DNA of 64,000 bases, taken from positions 85,621-149,620 of the IMG/VR virus record IMGVR_UViG_3300046692_000144, one strand, 5' to 3'. The translations under genes were made by a program, and so were the position numbers. Of the stretch, positions 3,449-18,743 are shown one piece after another. Source of the DNA: a virus (taxonomy: Duplodnaviria > Heunggongvirae > Uroviricota > Caudoviricetes). The notes beneath the pieces were generated by a model, which had not been told where the DNA came from, did no database searches, and saw only the letters and a program-made list of their open reading frames with translations. Within the stretch, counting starts at the first letter, position 1, and each line of letters opens with the position of its first letter.

Positions 3449-5146
3449 CTAGTAGTCTTCACGGCCCAAGCCGCCAAACATATTATCGTCGTCATCACCT
3501 GCACCCCAAGCATCTTTGTCGTCAAAACCGCCAGCGACAACACCGTGTGGAATGTGGGACCCAACTTCGAGCCCTTCGACGTATTTGAATTCTTGACGAA
3601 GAATCATTAATCCGATATTAGCAAAGACAACACTGTGAAGCCAGTCGTCTGGAATATCAGGATTCTTACAGTAGATCCTTCGCCCTGCCCGGGTCTCCTC
3701 TTCATGTACGCTCAGTGCATCTCTCCAGAACCCTGCCGTCTTCTCCCAGCTTGGGGTTTCGAAGCTATTGCGGCCAAGCTTCATCTTCATGATAACGGAG
3801 TCTATACACATTGTACGATCCGCTGCGAAGTACTGACCTTCTTTGTCCCAACGAAGAGCGGACTTAGATGCCACGTAGTTGATTGGTGCTACAAAGTCAC
3901 GACCCATCTCATTCTGCAACAACTGACACTGTAGAACACCAACCCCACGGTCGGAGGCAATGATCTGAGCCTTATACTTACGAGCTATGTACATTACGTG
4001 ACGGACTTGGTCCAAGATGTCTACACCGTTCAGACGCTCAGAATACAGTAGAAAGGTCTTGCCAAGCATGTTGGTCCCGATCACCGTAATGATCGTGTAG
4101 GACTTCGATGCAGAGGTTACAGACCAGTCCACCCCCAAAGACACTTGTAGGATACCCCGATCATCCGTAGGCCAGCCTTCTTCAAACTCAGTCCTCTCAG
4201 TGTTGCAGCAAAGCATGGCCTCTCGCTGAGTAAGGATCTTACCACCCATACCCGCTGCTAAGCCGAATACTTCGTTGGCTAGTTTCTGAGGGTTATACAT
4301 GGTGAGCTTGTCTTGCAGCTCCCTCCATTTCTTCGGCTTGGTACGAGCACCAATGATGAACTGAGGAATGTGTAGACCAATGCTGCGGGTAATCTCAGGG
4401 TTGAACGAAACCCAAGCACCTTTCGTAACGTCGATTACGTGATGGCAATACGGGCAGCCAGGACCGCCTTTATGCTCAAGGATCTTCATGCAGGTGTCGT
4501 AGTCATAAGCTGCGATATGACGACTGCACCCCTGACACTTCATAACCCATTCACACTGATTGCTCGCACGCCACTTTATCTCAAGGGTGTTGTTCTCAGT
4601 CTTGGCGGTGCCGGTAAGACGCTTGTAAGCGTAATCAGATGCGGAGAGGGTTTCGTACAGTACAGGCAGAGCGTCCAAACTCACGTCTTGGATTTCATCC
4701 ACGCAAAGCAAGTCGGCGTTGACTCCTCGAATACGGTCGGCGTCGGCTTCCGTCTCGGCGTATCCCAGATAGATCGTGGATTTGTTCTTGAAGGACTTCT
4801 GGAAAACGTTCTTCCGGGAAGAGGTGTCTCGATAGTACTTCTGGAGCAACGGTGACTCCATGAAGGTATCTAGGTAGCCAGTTGAGAAACGACTTGTCTG
4901 CTGGCTTAGAGGAGCGATGTACAAGGAGTTGAAATAGCTAGTCGAGGCACTGTTGGATACGAGCGCTCCTGAAAGGGACACCGACTTCCCTATCTGACGC
5001 CCGCACTTAAGCACCATCTCATCTGGGTACAGATCGTACACGTCAATGAAAGGTAAGTACTCATCGAAGGACAAAGGCTTACCTTTGATCTCTAGGAGAG
5101 CGGTTGCAAGTTGTGCCCGCGTAAGGGCCGTAGGTTTGTTGGTCAT
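3449..5146 (-). CDS. terL: Terminase large subunit
   Basis: Walker A GRQIGKS, Walker B LCVDEIQD, nuclease motifs LGVDW and PDDWLHS, CxxC...CxxC insert. Confidence 0.9.
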   Translation of the reverse strand: MTNKPTALTRAQLATALLEIKGKPLSFDEYLPFIDVYDLYPDEMVLKCGRQIGKSVSLSGALVSNSASTSYFNSLYIAPLSQQTSRFSTGYLDTFMESPLLQKYYRDTSSRKNVFQKSFKNKSTIYLGYAETEADADRIRGVNADLLCVDEIQDVSLDALPVLYETLSASDYAYKRLTGTAKTENNTLEIKWRASNQCEWVMKCQGCSRHIAAYDYDTCMKILEHKGGPGCPYCHHVIDVTKGAWVSFNPEITRSIGLHIPQFIIGARTKPKKWRELQDKLTMYNPQKLANEVFGLAAGMGGKILTQREAMLCCNTERTEFEEGWPTDDRGILQVSLGVDWSVTSASKSYTIITVIGTNMLGKTFLLYSERLNGVDILDQVRHVMYIARKYKAQIIASDRGVGVLQCQLLQNEMGRDFVAPINYVASKSALRWDKEGQYFAADRTMCIDSVIMKMKLGRNSFETPSWEKTAGFWRDALSVHEEETRAGRRIYCKNPDIPDDWLHSVVFANIGLMILRQEFKYVEGLEVGSHIPHGVVAGGFDDKDAWGAGDDDDNMFGGLGREDY

Positions 5147-5158: not shown

Positions 5159-5357
5159 CTACTCCGCTAGCCCTATCTCATTGGTAGCCCCTAGGAGCGC
5201 TCCTGGCGATAGTAATACGTGAAGGACTACCGTTGGGTACACCGTAGCTCTATCAGTCCTCCAGCAGCCTCTCAGGAGCTCGTATACGAATCAGGAGCAT
5301 GCTCTACGGATCATATACGGACCAACCTCCAAAACGCCTCCCGGAGACCATTGATCT

Positions 5358-5975
5358 AGAGCCTGCGCGGAACGAGGCCTTGATCTACGTGGCTTGCAGA
5401 GGAGCGTCTAAGCCGTAGACAAAACATGTCTACGCTAAGAGGCCCGTGCTAGAGCCTTTAGACAGAATCTTAGACATCTAGACAAAGTTTTGTCTAAGTC
5501 ATGTCTACGGCTGTAAGCCACGGCCCGTATGGCTTTGAGTGGTGCGCTAGACATTTAGACATGAATTTTCTCCACACAAGCACTAGGGCTCAGAAACCAG
5601 GAAATAAAAAACAAGAAATGGAGACAGTCATATACATACATATATATATTTATATATTTATAACTATATTAATGTACCCATGACATGGCTATGGCTCGTA
5701 GGTAGGGATCACAGAGTTGTTTTTTTATTTGTGTGTTTCCAAGCTCTGGGTGCTCGTGCGGAGAAAATTCATGTCTAAATGTCTAGCGCACCCCTCAAAG
5801 CCATACGGGCCGTGGCTTACAGCCGTAGACATGACTTAGACAAAACTTTGTCTAGATGTCTAAGATTTTGTCTAAAGGCTCTAGCACGGGCTTCTTAGCG
5901 TAGACATGGTTTGTCTACGGTTTAGACATGCCTCTGGAGGCCCCGTATATCAAGCCTTGTAGCCGCGCAGGCTCT
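5358..5975. repeat. Large imperfect palindrome (copy 1) with TAGAC/GTCTA iterons and AT-rich asymmetric core; origin-like
   Basis: Arms of about 255 bp (5358-~5613 vs ~5717-5975) are reverse complements; about 20 TAGAC pentamers; core 5615-5715. Confidence 0.95.
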
Positions 5976-6041
5976 ATATCGCGTGTTTCCGCGTGTATAC
6001 GCAATATTATCGAAATAAAATTCAATAATTCCCATAAGTCT

Positions 6042-6048
6042 GGTATAA
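6042..6048 (+). promoter_or_regulatory. Early-type promoter motif GGTATAA
   Basis: Recurrent motif upstream of plus-strand genes; precedes the Ubl operon. Confidence 0.7.
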
Positions 6049-6116
6049 CTATTGTGTAGCGGGGAACATATCGTTCTTATTGTTACACAACCTTTTAGAC
6101 TATTAGGAGTTTCACC

Positions 6117-6314
6117 ATGGCTATCACTTCGACCAAGATCGTTATCAGCACCACTGGCCAGACCTTCATCGTTCCTGGCGCCAGCACTGCTGAACAGGTC
6201 AAAAACCTGTACGGTTCTTCGGTTCCTGCCATCAACTCGATGGACGCCGACGTAAGCGATGACGGCGAAGTCCGTACCATCACCTTCCGTGCTCGTACCG
6301 GCACCAAAGGCTAA
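6117..6314 (+). CDS. Prokaryotic ubiquitin-like protein (PRTRC protein C-like)
   Basis: 65 aa, ends RARTGTKG, AGGAG SD, first gene of an E2/JAB/E1 operon. Confidence 0.8.
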   Translation: MAITSTKIVISTTGQTFIVPGASTAEQVKNLYGSSVPAINSMDADVSDDGEVRTITFRARTGTKG

Positions 6315-6344
6315 TTCCGAACCCTCGGTCTTAGCTTGATTGAG

Positions 6345-6376
6345 AAAGCCTCCCTAGTGGAGGCTTTTTCTTTTAG
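6345..6376 (+). terminator. Intrinsic terminator after the Ubl gene
   Basis: AAAGCCTCC-CTAGT-GGAGGCTTT plus T-tract. Confidence 0.8.
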
Positions 6377-6393
6377 TCATCTGGAGGATTTTC

Positions 6394-7329
6394 ATGTTTT
6401 CATTTGATGAGAACGGGAACGTTCTAATTGACACTGAGCAGTCTGATGCGATTACTCGTGCGACTAGCAACCGCACAATCTCTGCTCGTGCAACTGCACT
6501 TACCCGTGGGCAGTACGTTCCGATCAACCCAATCACCGCTAGTACTCTGCAACCGTTTCTGACGAGCTTGGGTGAACGTTACAAAGCTGTTTGCAACAAT
6601 CTTCGTGGTGGCGCTTCCAGGATTGCCTACCCACGGAGTCCGTCTGATCTTGACGTAATCAGTAACCGTGCAGTTGCTGACTGGGTGTCCGTAGAACTAC
6701 AAGGGTTTGAAGGGCCTCTGCCTATCCTGGAAGTGGAAGGGGTTCGCACTATTGATTTCTTGCTTCCTGCGGACGGCGCGGTGATTCGTTACCTGGGCCG
6801 ACTGCTACACAACTCGAAAGGGTTGGTCCATGCGGAGATCGTTGTTAACGGGGATCGTCGTCCAAGTGCAGTCCGTACTCTGGACGCCTCGGAAGCGGTT
6901 AACCCTAACGGAGACCACACCATGCGTCTTCGTATTTTCATGCGGTATTCCCATGGAACTTCCGGGCGTTTTGAAAACGCTGTTCCTGATACGTTGGTGG
7001 CTCTTCTGAAGATGATGGATATCGAGGAGGAGTTTCCGGCTCTGCCACGAGTACTGAGAACTCTGTCTCGCAAGCTTCGTAGCACTACTGGCAACTGGGG
7101 TGAAGAACCTCGATTCCCGGTAGTTAACTTTCGAGGCAAGATGGATGGCTACATGAGCAACGGGCGAGTTGAACTCTCTCTCATCCATCACTTGTTTCAT
7201 GGTAACCGTTCTCAGATGTACTCCGACAAGAGTGTCTACGCGGTGATGGACGAAAACATGAAGCAACCACTCCTAGCCACTAAACCAATAACTTCAACTG
7301 GAGCTGCCCAATGGATAACGCCAGCGTAG
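6394..7329 (+). CDS. Hypothetical protein in the Ubl operon
   Basis: 311 aa ORF with GGAGG SD; no family recognised. Confidence 0.75.
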   Translation: MFSFDENGNVLIDTEQSDAITRATSNRTISARATALTRGQYVPINPITASTLQPFLTSLGERYKAVCNNLRGGASRIAYPRSPSDLDVISNRAVADWVSVELQGFEGPLPILEVEGVRTIDFLLPADGAVIRYLGRLLHNSKGLVHAEIVVNGDRRPSAVRTLDASEAVNPNGDHTMRLRIFMRYSHGTSGRFENAVPDTLVALLKMMDIEEEFPALPRVLRTLSRKLRSTTGNWGEEPRFPVVNFRGKMDGYMSNGRVELSLIHHLFHGNRSQMYSDKSVYAVMDENMKQPLLATKPITSTGAAQWITPA

Positions 7330-7799
7330 CTGTAGAAGTAACTCGTTTCGACGGTCTTAACTTTGGTCAGGCATGCGCTCTTCTGTTTGCAGAGTGTAAG
7401 TCGAGCGCCCCAGAGGTAGACGGGTTTCAGAACCTCATCACGTATGTGAAGAGCATGCATGAGACTCTGGGTCTTGAGTTCAAGGTAGAGGAGTACTGGA
7501 ATCCGGAAACGGTTTCGGGTACGTACCCGGTGTGGCCTGACGCTATTGCTCGGTGGCAGCCTTCTGAGGCTATCGCAGGCCCAGTTACTCGGGAGAGCAC
7601 TCAAGCCCTTCTGAAAATACTGAGAGATACAACTCGGCTGGCAGATACTTACCGTCGAGGTATCGACGCTGTCAGTCAAAACTCTCAACGACGTGGTCGT
7701 GAAGGTCTCATCGATCCGAACATGCTCGTCCGTGCGGTTAACACCGCCCCTCTGTTCGTACCGGAAGCGTCTGAAGACGATGAAGATGACTTCCTCTAA
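7311..7799 (+). CDS. Hypothetical protein in the Ubl operon
   Basis: 162 aa ORF overlapping the previous stop; acidic C-terminus. Confidence 0.7.
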   Translation: MDNASVAVEVTRFDGLNFGQACALLFAECKSSAPEVDGFQNLITYVKSMHETLGLEFKVEEYWNPETVSGTYPVWPDAIARWQPSEAIAGPVTRESTQALLKILRDTTRLADTYRRGIDAVSQNSQRRGREGLIDPNMLVRAVNTAPLFVPEASEDDEDDFL

Positions 7800-7813
7800 C
7801 TGGGGGAGTTCCT

Positions 7814-7820
7814 GGTATAA
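7814..7820 (+). promoter_or_regulatory. Early-type promoter motif GGTATAA
   Basis: Upstream of the E2 gene. Confidence 0.7.
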
Positions 7821-7858
7821 GCATTATGCAAGAGAAATCTTTAGCAATAGGAGGCTAA

Positions 7859-8545
7859 ATGTCTAATCAACTTTTGGATATCAAACTTTTTGATACCCAT
7901 GCTTTGATCACTCGACCCGGATCGAAGCTTGCAAAACCAGTTGGGGTTAAGGATCTGGTGAGTGTTCTGAGTGAGTCTGCTCAGAACGTTCTCAACTACT
8001 CCCGATCAGAAACTCTGCGTCTGCCGAGCAATGTCTACATGACGAGCTACGCAGGCAACATGCTGAACCTCTGCATGTATTTCGAACAACGTCCGCTCAA
8101 GGTTCGTCACATCGACGATAGCAAGGGCAAGGACTACGAGATCATGATGCCTAACGTGGTTATCCACTTGGCGCTCAAGGTCAGCAACAACGGCGGCAAA
8201 CACGAAGTAACCGGTGCATGGTACTACTGCACTCCGGAGACTCGTGACAACCTGCCGACAGTAATCCCGGGGAAACTGAAGGGCATCTTCGGCTGGTTGC
8301 CTTTCCCGAACTGCTACGAGAACTTCACTCTCTGCTATGGCCGAAACAGTGTGTTCCACGCAGTAGAAGGCGGTGACCTTCGTATCTTCAACGTCTACTA
8401 CGACGTGCTCGTCAACAGTGCGTTTAACAACGACCTGCGTCTGATGGGTGTGAACTTCGATGGTCGTAACCGTGACTGGTTCGCCAAGATGGCTGAGGTT
8501 TACAAAACCGAACAACGTTTCCCCTACGAACTGATTAAATTCTAA
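7859..8545 (+). CDS. Prokaryotic E2-like conjugating enzyme (PRTRC protein B / Prok-E2 family D-like)
   Basis: LPFPNCYENFTLCYG matches the PF.N....G.iC.G active-site region; MPNVV strand; operon context. Confidence 0.75.
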   Translation: MSNQLLDIKLFDTHALITRPGSKLAKPVGVKDLVSVLSESAQNVLNYSRSETLRLPSNVYMTSYAGNMLNLCMYFEQRPLKVRHIDDSKGKDYEIMMPNVVIHLALKVSNNGGKHEVTGAWYYCTPETRDNLPTVIPGKLKGIFGWLPFPNCYENFTLCYGRNSVFHAVEGGDLRIFNVYYDVLVNSAFNNDLRLMGVNFDGRNRDWFAKMAEVYKTEQRFPYELIKF

Positions 8546-8558
8546 GAGGTCCTGAACA

Positions 8559-9581
8559 ATGACTCTACAAGTAGTATTGCCGCATTTCTCGTGCATCGTC
8601 TCCAGCGACGAGGCTCTCAAGCAAGCTGAAGAAGAAGGCTACTGCGAGATCTTCATCATCTCCCAGACTGGTCTGTTCAAACGTACTGGCTTGACCCACG
8701 GTCGTAGCGTTACTGTTCCTTGTGCAGCGCTTCCAGGTAACGTTTCCCTGCCGAAAAGCGGTCAAGACGTTTCCAAGTTTTTCCCTGCTGGCAAGATCCC
8801 TAAGCACTTCCTGGCAAAGATCATCAGCTTCTTCAAAGCAGTAATGGTCGAAAACAAAGGCACCAACCTGGAAGCACAAGCGTTCGTAATCTGGAACCCG
8901 GAACTGGGCTACCACATTCGAATCCCTGAGCAGACTGTTGCCGGTGCTTCGGTAAGCTACTCCTGGGAAAACTTCCTGGGTCCAAACGATGTGGTTGTTC
9001 TGGACATGCACTCCCACAACAACATGAACGCGTTCTTCAGCGGCACCGACGACCGCGACGACAATGGCAACTGCACCATCTCAGGTGTAGTAGGCAAGCT
9101 GAGCACCACCTGTGAATTGGTGTTCCGCTTCAACCTGCCTGGCAACCTGAAGATCAACCCTCTGGGCATGGACTTCATCTTCGCAGAAGAGGAGGACAAC
9201 TTCGAAGTCCCAAAGGACTGGCTGAACAACGTTAAGCGTCAGGTGTACGTTCCGCCTGTTGTTCCGGTTGGTGGCTACAACTACGGCGGCAACGGCTACA
9301 ACAAACGTAACTACGGCAAGAACGCGACCGCTGGGGGTGTCGTCCACAACGAAAGCTTTCGCGGACAGAATGGCCAAATGGCCATGGATGATGCTGGACT
9401 AAGCCAGGACGACGCGGAGGTGCTGGCCAGTTTCGGTCACCCTTTTCCGTTTAGCGGTGAAGGAGGTAACCAACCCCCTTTCACCGAGCGCCCGCTGACA
9501 AAGGGGCGCAAAACTCAGAAGCAAGCGAGCAAGGTAACTCGGCTGAAAACGAAGGCTCGCAGCCCCCGGATTATTATCTGA
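8559..9581 (+). CDS. JAB/MPN metallopeptidase (PRTRC protein A-like), unshifted isoform
   Basis: Upstream Glu (EAQA) and DMHSHNNMNAFFSGTDDRDD zinc motif. Confidence 0.85.
   Translation: MTLQVVLPHFSCIVSSDEALKQAEEEGYCEIFIISQTGLFKRTGLTHGRSVTVPCAALPGNVSLPKSGQDVSKFFPAGKIPKHFLAKIISFFKAVMVENKGTNLEAQAFVIWNPELGYHIRIPEQTVAGASVSYSWENFLGPNDVVVLDMHSHNNMNAFFSGTDDRDDNGNCTISGVVGKLSTTCELVFRFNLPGNLKINPLGMDFIFAEEEDNFEVPKDWLNNVKRQVYVPPVVPVGGYNYGGNGYNKRNYGKNATAGGVVHNESFRGQNGQMAMDDAGLSQDDAEVLASFGHPFPFSGEGGNQPPFTERPLTKGRKTQKQASKVTRLKTKARSPRIII
9460..9509 (+). other. Putative -1 programmed frameshift signal (SD, C CCT TTC, hairpin)
   Basis: GGAGG 9462-9466, heptamer 9476-9482, GCGCCC/GGGCGC stem 9488-9509. Confidence 0.7.
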
Positions 9582-9856
9582 CGGGCGAAGATGGCTTTGC
9601 GAAGCTTGACTGGAAAAACCCAGCCGTAGCAGACGCAGCGCTGCCTCTGTTGGACGTGGACGAGGATGATGACTTCTGGGTTCTCCAGGAGACAGAAGGC
9701 CTGAACACGGCGATGGCGTACACCGTGGGTAAAAACTGTATCGACGCGATGCTTGCAGAAGGTCAGCTTGATTGGCTTTCCGAGCTTCTAGACTACGCAG
9801 AAGATACTCTCGGCTTGGACGCTCTCGCAGCAGAAGCGGGTGCCGAAAAGAGTTAA
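9479..9856 (+). CDS. Acidic C-terminal extension of JAB in the -1 frame (the track's 9650..9856 ORF is its tail)
   Basis: Frame open from 9470 to TAA 9856, with no start codon at SD distance from the GGAGG. Confidence 0.6.
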   Translation, partial: FHRAPADKGAQNSEASEQGNSAENEGSQPPDYYLTGEDGFAKLDWKNPAVADAALPLLDVDEDDDFWVLQETEGLNTAMAYTVGKNCIDAMLAEGQLDWLSELLDYAEDTLGLDALAAEAGAEKS

Positions 9857-9861
9857 AGCTT

Positions 9862-9868
9862 GGTATAA
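9862..9868 (+). promoter_or_regulatory. Early-type promoter motif GGTATAA
   Basis: Upstream of the E1 gene. Confidence 0.7.
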
Positions 9869-9922
9869 CTAAGGTAGTGGAGGATACCCTCCCTACCTTT
9901 TGTCTTTTGGAGAGGCTCAGTA

Positions 9923-11188
9923 ATGTCTACGAATTTTACGTTTCAACTACCATACATTCCACAGACCGTAGTCGTATTCGGTTGCGGTGGTACGGGCAGT
10001 CGATTGGTTCCACCGATTGCTCAACTGATGTCCACCCTCCAAACTCTGGTTGCTCCTGAGCTGGTTCTGGTGGACTTCGACGAAGTAGAGGAGAAGAACC
10101 TCGCTCGTCAAAACTTCGCCAAGTCCGACATCGGCAAGAACAAGGCTACTGCCCTGGCATCTCGTTACTCTAAAGCGTATCCGACTCTGAAGATCACTCC
10201 GATCACAGTAGCTGCGGGTACTCCGGAGTATGGCGAAGCGCTGGGTATGTTCAACCTGCAAGACCGTCTGACGGGTCCAGCAGCGTATATCCTGGCGGTG
10301 GACTCGGCCAAAGCTCGTCGTGAGATCCTTGCAAGGGCTCTGTCTCCACAATCGGGTTCGGGTAACTCCAGTATCGTAATCGACGCTGGTAACGAAGACA
10401 TCTTCGGCCAGGTGAGCTTCTTCACCACGGGCAAGATCGGAAAGAATTCGGCCAAGGACCTGGAATTCATCTACAACTGGTATCAGGGCATTATCCCAGG
10501 TGACATGATCCTGAGCGAATTCCCAATCGACGTAATGGCTTATCTGAACATGCAGGAAGGCCAGTCCACTAAGTCGTGTGCTGATCTCGATCAGACCCTG
10601 GCGATCAACAACCTGATGGCCGCTCAGGTAGTGGCGTACGTTCAGAACTTCTTGATGGGTAAGCCTGTTCGTTCGTGGCGTACCAACTTCGATCTGTTCA
10701 ACGGCGTAAGCTACGACACGATTTCCGTTCCGGAGGTTCTTCGCCGAGCGGTAGAAGCGAAAACCAAAGGTCGTGAGGGTGAGACCTTCTTGAGTAACAT
10801 CCATCAGCGTATGCGTGCAAGCTCGGCTCCGATGGACGTGGTGTTCACTGACCTGAGCTCGTCTCTGGAAGATGAAATGCTTTCGGAAACTCCAACTCGC
10901 TACGAGACTGCGAAGATGATTCGTACCTCGTTGAACATGGGTCAGTTTGAACCGAGCTTGTTGTTCGAGGCGGACTTCCCTGACTACTACACCGACGCTT
11001 TCAAAGCTCTGTGGCGTAAAGGGTTCGAGCTTCCAGAAACTTCGGAAGACGAACGCAATACCTACCAGGTTGCTCTGAAGATCATGGAGGAGATGCAAGC
11101 AGAGGTAGCCGCAGCGGCTGCCGCAACTCAAGTCCCTACCATGGCAACTACCGAAGCTGAAGAAGAGGAAGAAGCCGACGAAGATTGA
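9923..11188 (+). CDS. ThiF/E1-like activating enzyme (PRTRC ThiF-like)
   Basis: GCGGTGS loop, D..VEEKNLARQ, IDAGN, KSCAD candidate catalytic Cys. Confidence 0.9.
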   Translation: MSTNFTFQLPYIPQTVVVFGCGGTGSRLVPPIAQLMSTLQTLVAPELVLVDFDEVEEKNLARQNFAKSDIGKNKATALASRYSKAYPTLKITPITVAAGTPEYGEALGMFNLQDRLTGPAAYILAVDSAKARREILARALSPQSGSGNSSIVIDAGNEDIFGQVSFFTTGKIGKNSAKDLEFIYNWYQGIIPGDMILSEFPIDVMAYLNMQEGQSTKSCADLDQTLAINNLMAAQVVAYVQNFLMGKPVRSWRTNFDLFNGVSYDTISVPEVLRRAVEAKTKGREGETFLSNIHQRMRASSAPMDVVFTDLSSSLEDEMLSETPTRYETAKMIRTSLNMGQFEPSLLFEADFPDYYTDAFKALWRKGFELPETSEDERNTYQVALKIMEEMQAEVAAAAAATQVPTMATTEAEEEEEADED

Positions 11189-11204
11189 TTTCGTCGAGTC
11201 AAGG

Positions 11205-11235
11205 AAAAGCCAGGATCACTCCTGGCTTTTTTTAG
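11205..11235 (+). terminator. Bidirectional intrinsic terminator
   Basis: AAAAGCCAGGA-TCAC-TCCTGGCTTTT between convergent genes. Confidence 0.85.
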
Positions 11236-11246
11236 TCTCTCTACGG

Positions 11247-11645
11247 TTAGATAGAGATACGGGAGTACGCAAGTTCAAGAGTGTCGTCAGCCGTATAGAT
11301 CCCAAGGACAGAACCATCTTGACGATACATGGTCATGACCTTTGTAGACTTGTCCCACTCCCATGCACCAAGGGCTTGGTCCTCTAGATTACGGAGGATA
11401 GATAACTGACTACGACCTACGACTTCAAACGATTCAATCTTCTGACCATCAACGATAAGGTCGAAGACTCCGGTCTCAACTGGAGTGAAAGAAGCAGAGT
11501 ACCAATCAGTACCCACGATAGAAGTGCAGGTCACCGCAGTTGCATCCAAGGCCCCGTCTTTAAAAACAAACGACGTTACTGGGGCAGAACTTGAGTAAAG
11601 AGAGGCCCTAGCAGCAGAGCCTAGCTGTAGTTGCATCATGTCCAA
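11247..11645 (-). CDS. Hypothetical (probable virion) protein
   Basis: 132 aa, beta-rich, end of a late operon. Confidence 0.65.
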   Translation of the reverse strand: MDMMQLQLGSAARASLYSSSAPVTSFVFKDGALDATAVTCTSIVGTDWYSASFTPVETGVFDLIVDGQKIESFEVVGRSQLSILRNLEDQALGAWEWDKSTKVMTMYRQDGSVLGIYTADDTLELAYSRISI

Positions 11646-13022: not shown

Positions 13023-13538
13023 TTAGCTCCGGGTAATTACGTTGAGTGCATCTTCTTGGGTATTAGAACCCGGTTGGTCTTTTAGCATGCTCTTGACCAT
13101 ATTCATATTCTTACGGGCGTTCATAGCAGTATAGAACTTTGGAACTGCAATACCTGCACCGGCTGCTCGTACGGCAAGATCTGTTATACCTTTGCTTTTG
13201 AATACGGGTGCAGGCTCATTGAATGGTTCTCCTGCCCCGAGAGCTTCATACTTGGAGACTGAATGGTGGTACGCATTCATTGTTCCTTTTACGGTATCCA
13301 AGATAGGGTCTGCCAATATTAACGCAGTACCTGCAACTCCTAACCCAATATCCTTCCAGAACCGACTATCGGTTTTAGCACCTGCACGGATAGTATGCCC
13401 GTGATCCGTTAGGAGTTCGACCTTCTCGGAAAGTGGCAACGCCTTAAATCTAGGATCGGTAATAACACGATCCAAGCTTAGACCAGAAGCTTGATAATTA
13501 CTAATAAGCTTAAGGAACATGTCTTCATGTAGGGTCAT
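13023..13538 (-). CDS. Hypothetical late protein with hydrophobic Gly/Ala segments
   Basis: 171 aa; IGLGVAGTALILA segment. Confidence 0.65.
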   Translation of the reverse strand: MTLHEDMFLKLISNYQASGLSLDRVITDPRFKALPLSEKVELLTDHGHTIRAGAKTDSRFWKDIGLGVAGTALILADPILDTVKGTMNAYHHSVSKYEALGAGEPFNEPAPVFKSKGITDLAVRAAGAGIAVPKFYTAMNARKNMNMVKSMLKDQPGSNTQEDALNVITRS

Positions 13539-14482
13539 ACAGTATCCAGTTCACCGTCAGCATCTCCGTTGTAGACAGGCTGACGTAGTTTTGTACCAGT
13601 AGGCGTCATCGCCTCAACCTGGATCAGCTTGTTTAACCAAGCGTTAGGGTGTTTGAAAATGTCTTCTCTGGTTCTACGGTCAAACCCCGTACCTACTTTG
13701 CCAACCTCACGTCCGGTAGCATCTTCCAACAGGAGAGCACCCGCACTAGGCTTAGGCTTACCGGAGATATCCTTCTCTTGAAGAATGGCTTTGACCTTTA
13801 GATTATAGTGGTTCTTATGCTTAAGTTTAACCCTCGGGTTCTTTGCCTCTGGAGCAGTAGGATCAAGGGTTATGACGCCTTCACGGCCTTCTTTTTTAGA
13901 TTTCTCAATGAGAGCGTTCATCCCCTCCACACCATGAGCATACTCAGGATGGAACATGAGATTGGTATCTCCGAAATCAGAGATCAATCCTTGTATGTGA
14001 GGAAGCTTATCGTTGAAGGTACTTACTCTAGGTTCGATCATGTCGAACACTACTGCTCGGATAGGACCGTCTTGAGACTGTTCCCTAATAGAACGCTCAG
14101 GAAGAGAGTTAAGTAGGCCAGATACTCGGGCATGTGACTCAAGGGCATAAGGATCGTGACCTGTATGAATAAGCTCTACGTTGTAAACCTTTCCTGCCTG
14201 AGACGGCAAAGTCTTGGCCAAGTGAGGAACTCGGTCAGCCTTCTCTATAACTGCACCTGTCACGGAAGGCCTACGGGAAACAAACGTAGGAATTCCGTAA
14301 TGGTCATAGCATAGAAAATACGAAGCGCCATCATATTTCAATGACGATAGCTTTGGTTTGTCATCACTACCTTTCTTGAAAGTGTCGTTGTATTTAGCAC
14401 GGGAATGCATAGAAGCAGATTTCTCCAGGTACGGGTTTGGATGTGGTGAGTTCATTGTAGTACCTGGAGAAGTATTGGTCAT
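13535..14482 (-). CDS. lig: Minimal ATP-dependent DNA ligase with N-terminal NPYLEKSAS tag
   Basis: KYDG motif I, YNVEL, VVFDMI, EGVI, RVKLK, OB-fold GKVGTGF. Confidence 0.9.
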   Translation of the reverse strand: MTNTSPGTTMNSPHPNPYLEKSASMHSRAKYNDTFKKGSDDKPKLSSLKYDGASYFLCYDHYGIPTFVSRRPSVTGAVIEKADRVPHLAKTLPSQAGKVYNVELIHTGHDPYALESHARVSGLLNSLPERSIREQSQDGPIRAVVFDMIEPRVSTFNDKLPHIQGLISDFGDTNLMFHPEYAHGVEGMNALIEKSKKEGREGVITLDPTAPEAKNPRVKLKHKNHYNLKVKAILQEKDISGKPKPSAGALLLEDATGREVGKVGTGFDRRTREDIFKHPNAWLNKLIQVEAMTPTGTKLRQPVYNGDADGELDTV

Positions 14483-15024: not shown

Positions 15025-15774
15025 TTACTTGTTCGCCTTTTCAATAGCTTTATTCTTTACATGCTTCGCCCAAGAAGCTGCGCCTACACCAGTTGCAGTA
15101 GCAGCTAAGTACGTACCGTATGCAGGGGCCATTTTCTTTAGGAACTTCTTAGCCACGCTGGCACCACGAGTCTTCAGGAGGTGTTTTGCAGGACTGAGAG
15201 ATGCTTGAGCCTCTTCCACTAGCATTGGTAGTGCAGAAGCAGCGACTGCGTACGGGGCTGCCTTTCGAACTTTCTCGTTATCGGAAGTAGCAGCATAACC
15301 GCCAGCCAATGCTCCTAGACCAAGAGCCGATCTTTGAGAAAGGGAGTGCATTATGAATTTACCCCTGACGCCTTTTCCACCGATGGCCTTCCGATACTTG
15401 TTGAAGCTGTGAGCGTGGCCATACTCATGCATTGCAAGGTCAGCACCTTTAGCATTTACGGTTGGACGCTTTACCCCCCTGAATCCAGGAGGGAGGTAGT
15501 GAGCAGCAAGCTCATGGTCGAACATCCCATTACCGCCCCTAATGACATGTCGTAGGTTTTTACTTTTCCGATAGGAGTTTACGTCTGACTCCGTAACTGC
15601 GGAGTTCCCTGCCAGGCCTTTGTGTGCGGCTCGTACCAGTCCATGGTTTATCGGGGTGGATAGGGCTATGGCCCCCGCAGTCGTCCCAACGACCGTACCG
15701 GTACGGGTCCACCCGTGTATGTGGTCCCTCTTTTTTTCAGTTGAAGCGATTTTCTCCAAGTAGATATTCATCAC
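15025..15774 (-). CDS. NxYLEK-tagged probable internal head protein, possible zincin-like metallopeptidase
   Basis: Starts MMNIYLEKIAS; contains HEYGH and a downstream EE.QAS. Confidence 0.6.
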   Translation of the reverse strand: MMNIYLEKIASTEKKRDHIHGWTRTGTVVGTTAGAIALSTPINHGLVRAAHKGLAGNSAVTESDVNSYRKSKNLRHVIRGGNGMFDHELAAHYLPPGFRGVKRPTVNAKGADLAMHEYGHAHSFNKYRKAIGGKGVRGKFIMHSLSQRSALGLGALAGGYAATSDNEKVRKAAPYAVAASALPMLVEEAQASLSPAKHLLKTRGASVAKKFLKKMAPAYGTYLAATATGVGAASWAKHVKNKAIEKANK

Positions 15775-16622
15775 TTCTTATCCGAAAGTACGCCTACGAT
15801 AAATTCTCGTGCTCCGTCACCAGGTTCACGTTTCTTAGCGACCTTCTCCAAGAAGACGTTAGACTCGCTCGCCTTTTTATCATGCCCCTTATACGCTCGG
15901 TAGGCCGCATGTCCTATCATGGCCACACCTGTACCGATAGCTACCTTGCGAGTTACCTTGGCCGCAATATTTGCACGATCTACCATCTTCGAGTTCGTAG
16001 TGGCCCCGGTCACAAGCTCAGACATGTATCCTTTTGAAAATGGCTTTCCAGCAGCTTTTGCCTTAGCCATATAGTTTTCACGATGCAGTTCAATAGCAGG
16101 CTTCATCTTCTCCGCTACCTTCTTACCAAGGTACTTCGAGCTTGCAGCAAGGCCGAGGCCAGCATAGCCTTCCATCGCTACGGACGCATCGTTGTTCTTA
16201 GCAGCAGCGGCCTTTTCAAGGTAGGGGTTCTTGTCGTCCAACGCTTTCTTCCTGAGAAATAGCCAAGCCTTCTCACCGTAATGTTCAGGGGCTTTTTTGA
16301 TTAAGAAACGATCACCGTTGTTTAGCTCAAGATGATAGTCATTGTTGATTGTCTGGGAACTACCTTTCTGAGCGTAGTCTATTACTTGGGTACCTGCCCC
16401 GTACTGACCGTCAGGGATAACGATGCTTGGAGTAGTGGCGTAATGGGCCGTATGGACTGGCTGCTCCCATAGGATCGTAGGTTTACCTACTTCCGGGAAC
16501 TCCTTTTTAGACGCCCACGAAAAAGCTTTGTCATCAATTACGATTCTATAGTCGTAATGTAATCCCGCTCGTTTAGCGTCGTGCTTCTGTCTAACGAAAA
16601 GTACTGGGGTCGGATTCTTCAT
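15771..16622 (-). CDS. LigD-type 3'-phosphoesterase domain fused to a tagged basic C-terminal segment
   Basis: QKHDAKRAGLHYDYRI..SWA, PVHTAHY, IPDGQYGAG; internal NPYLEKAAA and NVFLEKVAK. Confidence 0.85.
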   Translation of the reverse strand: MKNPTPVLFVRQKHDAKRAGLHYDYRIVIDDKAFSWASKKEFPEVGKPTILWEQPVHTAHYATTPSIVIPDGQYGAGTQVIDYAQKGSSQTINNDYHLELNNGDRFLIKKAPEHYGEKAWLFLRKKALDDKNPYLEKAAAAKNNDASVAMEGYAGLGLAASSKYLGKKVAEKMKPAIELHRENYMAKAKAAGKPFSKGYMSELVTGATTNSKMVDRANIAAKVTRKVAIGTGVAMIGHAAYRAYKGHDKKASESNVFLEKVAKKREPGDGAREFIVGVLSDKK

Positions 16623-16634: not shown

Positions 16635-16654
16635 ACGGCGACCCTACCTTGATT

Positions 16655-17410: not shown

Positions 17411-17908
17411 ATGGCGATTCGCCCTAGCACCACCGCTTCACCTCGGGATACGTTGAAATGTCTTCGACCTCACAAGGGTCTTATGTGTTTTAACTCCGAG
17501 GCAGGCCACTACGAGAAATACGCAGTGGTCACGGGAACCCCTAACAACGCGGGGTTCGTTCCTCTTGAAAAGCATGTAGGAGTAGTGCGCCTTGGCGTTA
17601 TCTACTTGAAGAATATCGGATCTGTTCGGAGTGGTTTCTATGCTGTCTTCCCTCGTGACATCTACCGTCGAAGAATCGACGCAAGACCCGTTCGACGACT
17701 CTCAATTGAGGAAGCAACTCTCCTCCTTGGAGGGAACCTTGATCACCTTGGATTGCCAGAAGCAACCCTTGGAGAACTCGATGCCTCAATCGAACCGCGA
17801 ACTATCGAAACTTCTCAGAGTGCAGAGCTCAGCGACGCTGACGTATGCTTCGAAGAACAAATCCGATCACTACAAGCTTCTGAAGATTCCGAAGAAGGGT
17901 GGTTATAG
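17411..17908 (+). CDS. Hypothetical RT-associated protein overlapping the RT gene
   Basis: AGGAGG SD; 165 aa with beta-rich core and acidic tail; 3' end overlaps the RT start. Confidence 0.65.
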   Translation: MAIRPSTTASPRDTLKCLRPHKGLMCFNSEAGHYEKYAVVTGTPNNAGFVPLEKHVGVVRLGVIYLKNIGSVRSGFYAVFPRDIYRRRIDARPVRRLSIEEATLLLGGNLDHLGLPEATLGELDASIEPRTIETSQSAELSDADVCFEEQIRSLQASEDSEEGWL

Positions 17909-18743
17909 GGTCGTTTACAACCCAAGCAATCTCATGCGTTTGTTGCAGTTCCGAATCTTGAAGGAGGTCCTAGAGAAGTACTTCGAGATCCCGGATTACA
18001 TTTACGCTTTCGAACGGGATAAATCTATCCCGGTCATGGCGAAGATGCATGAGGGTAGCTTGCAAGTTGTAAGCCTTGACATCAAGGACTACTTTCCGAG
18101 CATTAAGCAAAACGTTCTGAAAGACTTGATGCAAAGCGTCGGCTTCGGAGAGTCTCCGGCCCGCACCTTGTCGGAGCTTATGACCTTAGGGCCAAATGTT
18201 CCGCAGGGTGGATTGACCAGTCCAAAGATTAGCAACGTGGTTGCCTCTAGGACTTTCGGGCCTGTGGTAAAGAAGTTCTGCGAAGACAGGGGCCTGGCCC
18301 TTACCATCTACGCAGATGACATCACGATTTCTTCGAAGGCAGACTTCAACGCCCAAGAAGCTATCGAGTTCGTGTCTGGGGTTCTCGTCGGCTTTGGCTT
18401 CCGGGTCAATAAGGCTAAGACGAAAGTAATGAAGAAAGGTACTCGACGCAGTCGTTTGTATGTGTGCGGTACCGTTGTGAACGAGAAGGTGAATCTCCTC
18501 CGGAACGAGCGTCTTCGGTTAAGAGCCGTCGTTCACAACAGTGTTAAAAATGGTCTGGAAGCAGAAGCGTCTAAGACCGGTCTCACCGCAAACGAATTCT
18601 TAATGAGAGTTCGTGGCAAGCTCAACTGGTTTGGACAGCTAAACCCTGAAGGGTCTTCGAAACTCATCGAACGATTCCAAGGGGCATGCACGGATTGGGA
18701 AGTGATCAACCGATCAACTCCTTACCAACACCAGCCTGGGTAA
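17781..18743 (+). CDS. Retron-type reverse transcriptase (frame open from 17610; ATG 17781 has a GGAG SD)
   Basis: IPKKGGYR, AFERDKS, SLDIKDYFPSI, VPQGGLTSP, YADD, GFRVN..KT, YVCGTVVN. Confidence 0.9.
   Translation: MPQSNRELSKLLRVQSSATLTYASKNKSDHYKLLKIPKKGGYRVVYNPSNLMRLLQFRILKEVLEKYFEIPDYIYAFERDKSIPVMAKMHEGSLQVVSLDIKDYFPSIKQNVLKDLMQSVGFGESPARTLSELMTLGPNVPQGGLTSPKISNVVASRTFGPVVKKFCEDRGLALTIYADDITISSKADFNAQEAIEFVSGVLVGFGFRVNKAKTKVMKKGTRRSRLYVCGTVVNEKVNLLRNERLRLRAVVHNSVKNGLEAEASKTGLTANEFLMRVRGKLNWFGQLNPEGSSKLIERFQGACTDWEVINRSTPYQHQPG

Follow-up and report, generated by a model that had tools for sequence, protein, structure and literature searches.

A putative ubiquitin-like conjugation cassette of the PRTRC kind beside the large terminase gene in a clade of large phages

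Results and discussion

Gene content of the cassette and its relatives

The window analysed here is a stretch of 64,000 nucleotides (nt) from a virus of the Caudoviricetes, and comprises bases 85,621-149,620 of the IMG/VR record IMGVR_UViG_3300046692_000144, which is 165,460 bp long, carries direct terminal repeats and is estimated to be complete. Seven co-oriented open reading frames (ORFs) on the plus strand stand together, flanked by the large terminase gene (3449-5146, minus strand; 51.6% identity to the terminase of Salmonella phage Arash) and a block of minus-strand genes that begins at 11,247. Four of these ORFs, encoding a ubiquitin-like protein (Ubl), an E2-like protein, a JAB peptidase and an E1 enzyme, had been proposed in an original prediction, made from the letters of the window, to form a complete conjugation pathway. 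All four were located on the plus strand at the coordinates assigned to them, together with every motif quoted for them, and profile, alignment and structure evidence jointly point to a Ubl-E2-JAB-E1 cassette, the catalytic motifs of which are intact. The list of four genes was nevertheless incomplete, as three additional plus-strand ORFs (311, 162 and 68 amino acids, aa) within 6117-11188 had been overlooked. In profile searches with the individual ORFs, E1 and JAB scored far beyond chance while the Ubl and the E2-like protein were weak or silent as single sequences; structure and family-profile searches back the assignment of the latter two. Six of the seven cassette ORFs have no family match in PHROGs. 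At the nucleotide level, the phage collection gave no megablast match to the cassette; relatives are seen at the protein level only.

A search for related loci with a narrow E2 alignment gave three IMG/VR loci, and altogether the cassette was found in ten (L002-L005, L007, L008 and L011-L014). L004, L011 and L012 are IMG/VR contigs, L005 is a 168.7-kb NCBI metagenome contig, and L007, L008, L013 and L014 are Logan contigs; L002 is Salmonella phage Arash (OQ632216.1) and L003 is Vibrio phage D69 (OZ195729.1). For comparison we refer to PRTRC (ParB-Related, ThiF-Related Cassette) systems (NCBIfam TIGR03734-TIGR03742), which are the operon type 6d of Iyer, Burroughs & Aravind 2006 (PMC1779556), and which are represented here by plasmid pSTJ1 of Sulfuricystis multivorans (L017).

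The cassette has the same placement in the window, L004, L005, L008, L011, L012, L014 and Arash, and is also present in L007, L013 and D69, which are partial or rearranged. Where a contig includes the flanks, the cassette stands, D69 excepted, between the terminase and the same three minus-strand genes. This placement holds at a terminase identity near 50% and an E2 identity down to 28%, and even the weakest E2 representative among the matches listed (E 6e-16) keeps the arrangement. Because the fixed flanks persist at such distances, the comparison indicates that a large phage clade inherited the cassette from its ancestor and keeps it under purifying selection. Near-identical E1 matches were obtained from the Vibrio phages D148 and D181.

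In the published annotations of the culturable members, the cassette genes are called 'hypothetical' or 'structural' only. The E1 and E2-like homologues of Arash carry the GenBank label 'structural protein', which derives from particle mass spectrometry and indicates that both proteins are at least produced. We used the GenBank labels alone, since the protein numbers in the proteome table of the Arash paper have no dependable correspondence with those of GenBank.

The ubiquitin-like protein and its precursor forms

The first gene of the unit (6117-6314, plus strand) encodes the 65-aa Ubl, which ends in RTGTKG, with Gly65 directly preceding the stop codon. A profile built from 11 diverse phage Ubls matches bona fide plasmid PRTRC_C (hhalign probability 87%, E 3.8e-6), and GTKG ends both. 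The Atlas model of the exact Ubl sequence (predicted local distance difference test, pLDDT, 0.75) has its best structural match in the PRTRC_C/Prok_Ub cluster (template modelling score, TM, 0.72 over 63 of 65 residues), and resembles other ubiquitin-like domains (TM 0.59-0.64) as well as ThiS/MoaD domains. The predicted protein therefore combines a beta-grasp fold with an available C-terminal Gly, as expected of ubiquitin-like modifiers. Two sets of 15 and 11 homologues keep the final Gly-Lys-Gly without exception, and the Thr in front of it almost without exception; all loci have the C-terminal motif (K/R)(T/V)GTKG except L014, the Ubl of which ends in KVGEKG. In the Arash record the coding sequence gp251c (L002:102-320) is annotated in the wrong frame, and the real Ubl ORF (L002:107-307) ends in RTGTKG.

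Some relatives encode the Ubl in a form that extends beyond the terminal Gly. One extra C-terminal Cys is found in three of the 15 close homologues (L004 and two database homologues), and Vibrio phage D69 possesses a poly-Ubl gene (L003:3418-4209) with three beta-grasp units in one protein of 263 aa. Each of these units ends in TGTKG, linkers separate them (an acidic one stands before the third), and five residues trail the last Gly. Poly-Ubl and extended precursors imply cleavage after GTKG; by analogy with eukaryotic polyubiquitin, a poly-Ubl would make sense only with a peptidase that cuts after the Gly. The adjoining JAB peptidase is the obvious candidate for this cut, and the poly-Ubl and Cys-extended precursors would be ready substrates for it. 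Taken together, the precursor forms argue for a genuine activation-and-transfer pathway. A predicted complex of the Ubl with E1 residues 1-290 scored 0.01, which is no verdict and speaks neither for nor against binding.

The E2-like protein

Canonical E2 enzymes have an HPN motif followed by the catalytic Cys about eight residues downstream. The E2-like protein of the window (228 aa; 7859-8545, plus strand) carries PFPN at residues 148-151 and LCYG at 158-161; the FPN triplet occupies 149-151, so that Cys159 stands eight residues past Asn151, and the canonical His is replaced by Phe. Across 52 E2-like sequences (21-72% identity) Asn151, Cys159 and Gly161 are invariant. An exhaustive search with a profile of 17 close homologues collected 240 representatives of clusters formed at 50% identity, 196 of them at E <= 1e-10. 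Among the 52 aligned members, 38 match the Pfam family Prok-E2_D (PF14460; best E 1.8e-8) and 21 match PRTRC_B (TIGR03737), the latter weakly (best E 1.9e-6). Comparison with plasmid PRTRC_B aligns the active-site region (hhalign probability 63.5%, E 6.8e-5). The predicted structure leads to the same families: Foldseek against the AlphaFold database (AFDB) returned 'PRTRC system protein B' (E 3e-7), and the top structural match in the Atlas is a Prok-E2_D cluster (TM 0.52/0.54). Foldseek against the PDB gave no match at E <= 0.001.

The JAB peptidase, a probable frameshift and group I introns

The gene at 8559-9581 (plus strand) encodes a JAB/JAMM metallopeptidase with a zero-frame form of 340 aa. 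It carries the full JAMM motif (E105, H151-x-H153, S161 and D164, with HSH and FFSGTD at 159-164), which is conserved in the relatives. The protein consists of an N-terminal alpha+beta domain, the JAMM motif, a Gly/Asn-rich linker and a basic tail. It matches Prok-JAB (PF14464; E 1.4e-6, 28.6 bits against a threshold of 25) and PRTRC_A (TIGR03735; 72.8 bits, E 2.5e-20, profile positions 11-187 of 192), the latter under the cut-off of 101.8 bits. A sequence search against solved structures found nothing for the JAB protein.

Inside the JAB gene lies a candidate -1 slippery heptamer, C_CCT_TTC (9476-9482, plus strand), at the head of an open -1 frame that extends over 9470-9856, includes the 68-aa ORF (9650-9856) and encodes an acidic C-terminal domain. 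A CCCTTTY heptamer is found at the opening of the -1 frame in the window, L004, L005 and L007, and the frame stays open for 360-440 nt, through the 68-aa ORF. Homology links the -1 domain with the C-terminus that the longer JABs of L011-L014 encode in frame (hhalign probability 90.8%, E 1.2e-6), and the predicted -1 fusion of about 432 aa has the size of these long forms. These comparisons indicate that the 68-aa ORF is not an independent gene, and that a programmed -1 frameshift probably yields a short, basic-tailed and a long, acidic-tailed peptidase.

In L005 and L008 the JAB genes are split right after HSHNxMG (L005:7205-8254; L008:9267-9855). The inserts align from end to end with the Rfam model for group I introns (43 bits, E about 1e-9, under the gathering score of 50 bits), and that of L005 carries a LAGLIDADG-type ORF. 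Both occupy the most conserved site of the JAB gene and leave the exons intact.

The tails of several cassette proteins are charged. The zero-frame JAB tail (9480-9581) has a strongly basic composition, and three of four relatives have in it the sequence TKGR, which resembles the Ubl cleavage site TKG. Acidic tails recur in the 162-aa protein, which ends in DDEDDFL (7770-7799), in the -1 JAB domain (DEDDDFW; 9650-9680) and in the Glu/Asp run of E1 (11150-11188). The charged tails may be docking or pseudo-substrate motifs.

The E1 enzyme

The last gene of the cassette (9923-11188, plus strand) encodes a ThiF-type E1 of 421 aa with a single adenylation domain. It matches ThiF (PF00899; E 3.6e-17, 62.7 bits against a cut-off of 28.1), and its top NCBIfam match is PRTRC_ThiF (TIGR03736; 77.7 bits, E 8.3e-22), under the cut-off of 144.75 bits; secondary NCBIfam matches are ThiF and MoeB, and a cap2_3-type model gives one weak match (E 3.4e-7). 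Among solved structures the best sequence match is MccB (E 6e-5), confined to residues 15-93, i.e. the shared nucleotide-binding region. Seven E1 homologues (32-71% identity) share without exception GCGGTGSR (20-27), D51/D53, K58-N-L-x-R62-Q63, K74 and D127, the last being the predicted Mg-binding residue. Cys219, within SCADL (218-222), is the single non-loop Cys that is invariant in the same seven sequences, and is the candidate thioester Cys. The C-terminal extension with its acidic tail is lineage-specific. In D69, the E1 gene (L003 7001-7975) is annotated from 7220, while homology begins at 7001, under a small coding sequence on the opposite strand.

The accessory proteins p311 and p162

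Between the Ubl and E2-like genes lie two further plus-strand genes. The first encodes p311, a conserved accessory protein of 311 aa (6394-7329) with 17 homologues at 39-66% identity; the second encodes p162 (162 aa; 7311-7799), the start of which overlaps the end of p311 by 19 nt, and which has an acidic C-terminal tail ending in DDFL. Searches of p162 against Pfam, NCBIfam and PHROGs gave no family match, and its feature matches in the Atlas to T7SS-associated proteins were given no weight. The model of p311 is confident (pLDDT 83), and a fold search found no convincing match in the PDB by Foldseek, in the AFDB clusters, in a wide structure search (best Z 4.0) or by Atlas shape (TM <= 0.29). 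Feature matches in the Atlas (nucleotidyltransferase-like, and DUF7275/7277 clusters) raised the candidate of a CD-NTase-like (cGAS/DncV-like nucleotidyltransferase) enzyme, which the other searches did not support and which we rejected.

Identity between L004 and the window is about 41% for p311, whereas the E2-like protein reaches 65%, E1 72% and the Ubl 74%. p311 evolves faster than the enzymes, and the accessory proteins change at about twice the enzyme rate. Most likely p311 and p162 set the specificity of the system or serve as its substrates. On account of this difference in rate between accessory proteins and enzymes, we lean slightly towards host proteins as the targets.

Transcription signals and neighbouring features

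A promoter-like motif with an extended -10-like TGnTATAAx element, CTGGTATAAC, stands at 6040-6049 (plus strand), 77 nt upstream of the Ubl start. A second copy, CTGGTATAAG, which belongs to repeat family D5, is found at 7812-7821 (plus strand), 47 nt upstream of the E2-like gene, and a third, TTGGTATAAC, at 9860-9869 (plus strand), 63 nt upstream of the E1 gene. The window has 23 copies of the motif TGGTATAA(C/G/T), where chance would give 5.6. Copies with the exact core are all on the plus strand, where they precede gene blocks (e.g. at 16653, 17129, 18917, 21929, 40052, 47868, 56545 and 62892), while the minus-strand genes, which form the majority of the window, are without it. The motif is probably one temporal promoter class. 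Early expression of the cassette, as originally proposed, is putative, its one basis being that this class is confined to plus-strand units.

Directly after the Ubl gene there is a hairpin with a T-run that resembles an intrinsic terminator (6342-6380, plus strand; 12-bp stem within 6342-6370). The motif upstream of the Ubl gene is kept in five of seven diverged loci, at 69-82 nt in L004, L005, L008 and Arash (there TGGTATAAT), and a GC-rich hairpin with T-run follows the gene in all seven, with differing stem sequences. The Ubl gene thus has the promoter-like motif and terminator of its own that had been predicted, and both are conserved; they fit, and support, a tag made in excess of the enzymes.

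At the other end, a hairpin with 20-nt arms followed by a T-run (11196-11239) forms an inverted repeat after the E1 stop, between convergent genes, and likely marks the end of the cassette unit. Just downstream, amid minus-strand genes that are otherwise unassignable, lie a gene for an ATP-dependent DNA ligase-like protein (13535-14482; PHROG 114, E 2e-20) and one for a protein with a LigD 3'-phosphoesterase domain (15771-16622; PF13298, E 2.8e-8), both on the minus strand. A putative retron-type reverse transcriptase ORF, labelled so in the first reading of the sequence, is found at 17411-18743, about 6.5 kb downstream of the cassette.

The palindrome that had been reported next to the cassette is present between the terminase and Ubl genes as a giant inverted repeat (5342-5991) with 242-nt arms that are 89% complementary and a 166-nt AT-rich spacer with a TA palindrome, and it is full of TAGACA/GTCTA iterons. 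A functional tie of the cassette to this palindromic iteron module (a putative origin) as a conserved feature was rejected, because L014 has only 86 bp between terminase and Ubl, and L008 has two other genes there.

Proposed mechanism

We consider it likely that the cassette is a functional phage Ubl relay of the PRTRC/operon-6d type, in which the tag passes from E1 to E2 to a target and the JAB peptidase takes care of processing and reversal. The tag would be transcribed from its own promoter, with the terminator attenuating read-through, so that more tag than enzymes would be made. In relatives with a precursor tag, the JAB peptidase would cut after GTKG and expose the C-terminal Gly. The ThiF-type E1 would adenylate this Gly using ATP, and the tag would then be handed as a thioester to Cys219 of E1 and next to Cys159 of the E2-like protein. 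The latter would join the tag to lysines of target proteins, a step that the JAB peptidase would be able to reverse, with p311 and p162 setting specificity or being substrates themselves. In the sub-clade of the window, the -1 frameshift would supply two alternative peptidase tails. We infer every chemical step of this relay, as well as proteins (and not other molecules) as the targets, the timing, and the roles of p311 and p162.

Several observations weigh against a functional relay. The assignments of the Ubl and the E2-like protein depend on profiles, transitive links and predicted structures. As a single sequence, the Ubl reaches 18.8 bits with PRTRC_C (TIGR03738; E 0.0013), below the 45.95-bit cut-off, and 13.4 bits with Prok_Ub (PF14454; E 0.067), below the threshold of 25; the E2-like sequence of the window taken alone has no Pfam match, nor a PRTRC_B match at E <= 0.1. 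The AlphaFold model of the E2-like protein is moderate (pLDDT 68.5) with an active-site loop of low confidence, and its matches to solved chains are weak (Z 3-5), many of them being E2, UEV, RWD or FANCL folds. Neither an E3 nor a target was identifiable. The particle proteome of Arash comprises 116 proteins and includes ribonucleotide reductases and metabolic enzymes (PMC10585845), and a proteome of this breadth does not show that the E1 and E2-like proteins are associated with the virion. Finally, the PRTRC/6d family was predicted bioinformatically in 2006, and we found no experimental study of its function in the literature; PRTRC is not known to conjugate any substrate.

Alternative explanations

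The same genes could be read in other ways. The cassette could mainly serve counter-defence against Bil or type II CBASS (cyclic oligonucleotide-based antiphage signalling system), with the JAB peptidase stripping host conjugates and Ubl, E1 and E2 acting as decoys or competitors. The fast evolution of p311 and p162 would fit such an arms race, but a decoy needs no invariant catalytic residues in E1 and E2, yet these are kept across about 240 clusters; moreover, the E1, E2 and Ubl are of the PRTRC lineage and not of that of Bil or Cap2, and cross-recognition is not expected, which makes this explanation unlikely. Alternatively, the Ubl could be a sulfur carrier, the C-terminal thiocarboxylate of which donates sulfur (e.g. 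to a thiolated nucleoside or cofactor) while the JAB peptidase trims the precursor only, as in CysO/Mec+ and QbsE/QbsD. This would agree with the ThiF/MoeB family membership of E1, seen also in its secondary NCBIfam matches, with the resemblance of the Ubl model to beta-grasp proteins of the ThiS/MoaD type, and with the known sets of Ubl, JAB and E1 that serve sulfur transfer (PMC1779556). Sulfur-carrier systems, however, are without an E2, while every locus has an E2-like protein in which Asn and Cys are invariant. The phage Ubl ends in GTKG and not in GG, the usual C-terminus of ThiS and MoaD, and for a poly-Ubl precursor we know of no parallel among sulfur carriers. The absence of sulfur-pathway genes, noted at the outset for the window, extends to the complete 165-kb genome, in which no rhodanese, cysteine desulfurase or PP-loop thiolase was found. 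Because of the lack of sulfur-transfer genes and the invariant catalytic residues of the E2, we rank a sulfur carrier low and regard it as quite improbable.

Two further alternatives concern the acceptor and the origin of the module. The activated Ubl could be transferred to a non-protein acceptor (a nucleotide, lipid or DNA end), or take part in a modification like that of microcin C by MccB. MccB is indeed the solved structure that E1 matches best in sequence, a gene for an ATP-dependent DNA ligase and one for a LigD-type phosphoesterase domain lie 2-5 kb downstream, and plasmid PRTRC cassettes adjoin ParB and dnaN. The MccB match is nevertheless restricted to the nucleotide-binding region that such enzymes share, the E2-type Asn and Cys together with a JAB isopeptidase are specific to protein conjugation, and no acceptor-specific enzyme was found within the cassette; we therefore hold this to be very unlikely. 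That the cassette is a passive or decaying module, captured from a plasmid or an integrative and conjugative element (ICE) and without a role in infection, could be suspected since its nearest described relatives reside on such elements. The position, however, is fixed and all parts are intact in the related loci in spite of their divergence in terminase (about 50% identity) and E2 (about 28%), the catalytic residues are invariant, and the group I introns in the JAB genes of two relatives leave the exons intact, so that we give this explanation hardly any credence.

Significance of a proposed functional relay

A functional relay of E1, E2 and JAB peptidase remains the reading that we favour, and it can be extended, more tentatively, to a biological proposal: a clade of lytic phages may possibly run its own Ubl conjugation during infection, with poly-Ubl, excess tag and two frameshift isoforms of the peptidase as features that recall eukaryotes, and tag host proteins, so as to disarm or reprogram the cell, or its own virion or replication proteins. 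If true, this would make the cassette the first Ubl-conjugation pathway of a virus in prokaryotes and assign a first function to the PRTRC/6d family. Bacterial Ubl conjugation is currently viewed as a weapon of the host against phages (Bil and type II CBASS). We found no paper that describes or tests a PRTRC-like cassette in phages. New here are the clade-wide, ParB-less variant beside the terminase, its culturable members, the poly-Ubl and extended precursors, the frameshifted peptidase and the group I introns in JAB genes. The diverged PRTRC-type cassette is a fixed core feature of a large clade that includes the culturable phages Arash, D69, D148 and D181, and such members make its targets and purpose testable by phage genetics and mass spectrometry (e.g. 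Arash on S. Typhimurium ATCC 14028).

Comparison with PRTRC and other known systems

The only long-known phage pairing of a Gly-ending beta-grasp protein with a JAB peptidase is that of the Lambda/T1 tail assembly proteins I (Ubl) and K (JAB and NlpC/P60) (PMC1779556). These are without E1 or E2, so that processing takes place with no activation or transfer, and their genes belong to the tail module in late orientation. The Bub systems (6E/DUF6527) are an uncharacterised or only recently characterised bacterial family of Ubl, E1, E2 and peptidase on mobile elements, in which the peptidase frees the Ubl from a precursor (PMC11601596). Their protein families differ from those of the phage cassette and their architectures are fused (BubAB and BubCD); none of the phage proteins has a Bub-type match in Pfam or NCBIfam.

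The parallel drawn originally with Bil and with Cap2/Cap3 of type II CBASS holds for mechanism and fails for lineage, as there is but one adenylation domain in the phage E1, and profile links place the E2 in the Prok-E2_D family. Type II CBASS resembles the cassette in its E1, E2 and JAB chemistry in a conflict between phage and bacterium. In CBASS, however, E1 and E2 are fused (Cap2) and the CD-NTase is itself the 'tag', whereas the phage proteins are a separate E1, a separate E2 and a dedicated Ubl of 65 aa. Bil (bacterial ISG15-like, types I and II; BilABCD), for which conjugation to lysines has been demonstrated (PMC11601596; bioRxiv 10.1101/2023.09.04.556158), shares with the cassette a four-part set of Ubl, E2, JAB and E1 without an E3, and is the best mechanistic model for it. 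The phage E1 departs from the Bil architecture (PMC11601596) in having a single ThiF stretch (residues 15-262 of 421), the E2 and Ubl families (Prok-E2_D and Prok_Ub) are different from those of Bil, and Bil is a host defence against phages.

The closest likeness is to PRTRC. On pSTJ1 the genes are ordered E, C (69 aa), 74 aa, 336 aa, B, A and ThiF, and the phage order of Ubl, 311 aa, 162 aa, E2, JAB and E1 is colinear with it from C onward. The Ubl of the phage and the PRTRC_C of pSTJ1 have the C-terminus GTKG in common, and the E2 active sites of the phage protein and PRTRC_B alike consist of LPxxN, seven residues and the Cys. Type 6d operons are further characterised by an extra N-terminal JAB domain and a fast-diverging accessory protein (PMC1779556), and the phage cassette has the extra JAB domain too. 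PRTRC models are the top NCBIfam matches for three of the four phage proteins, yet all four stay under the curated cut-offs. After the E2 Cys, PRTRC_B has S-H-P and the phage family N-N-D, and the conserved His of the 6d E2s may be missing in the phage. p311 and the 336-aa protein that takes its place in PRTRC are dissimilar in sequence (hhalign probability 0.1%), and the cassette matches no other PRTRC models, hence none for the proteins E or F. The PRTRC counterparts are far shorter: PRTRC_A has 229 aa against 340/432 aa for the phage JAB, and PRTRC_ThiF has 268 aa against 421 aa for the phage E1. PRTRC resides on plasmids and ICEs, and on pSTJ1 it adjoins ParB and dnaN, whereas the phage cassette is found beside the terminase in large phages that look strictly lytic; unlike in PRTRC, a search for ParB_N (PF02195) in the complete 165,460-bp genome gave no match. 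The resemblance to PRTRC claimed from the start therefore stands as regards gene order, the GTKG end, and the profile and fold matches, and does not extend to strict membership, given the scores below the cut-offs and the absence of ParB. Instead of a member of PRTRC itself, sequence comparison places the cassette as a diverged, ParB-less phage branch of the PRTRC kind.

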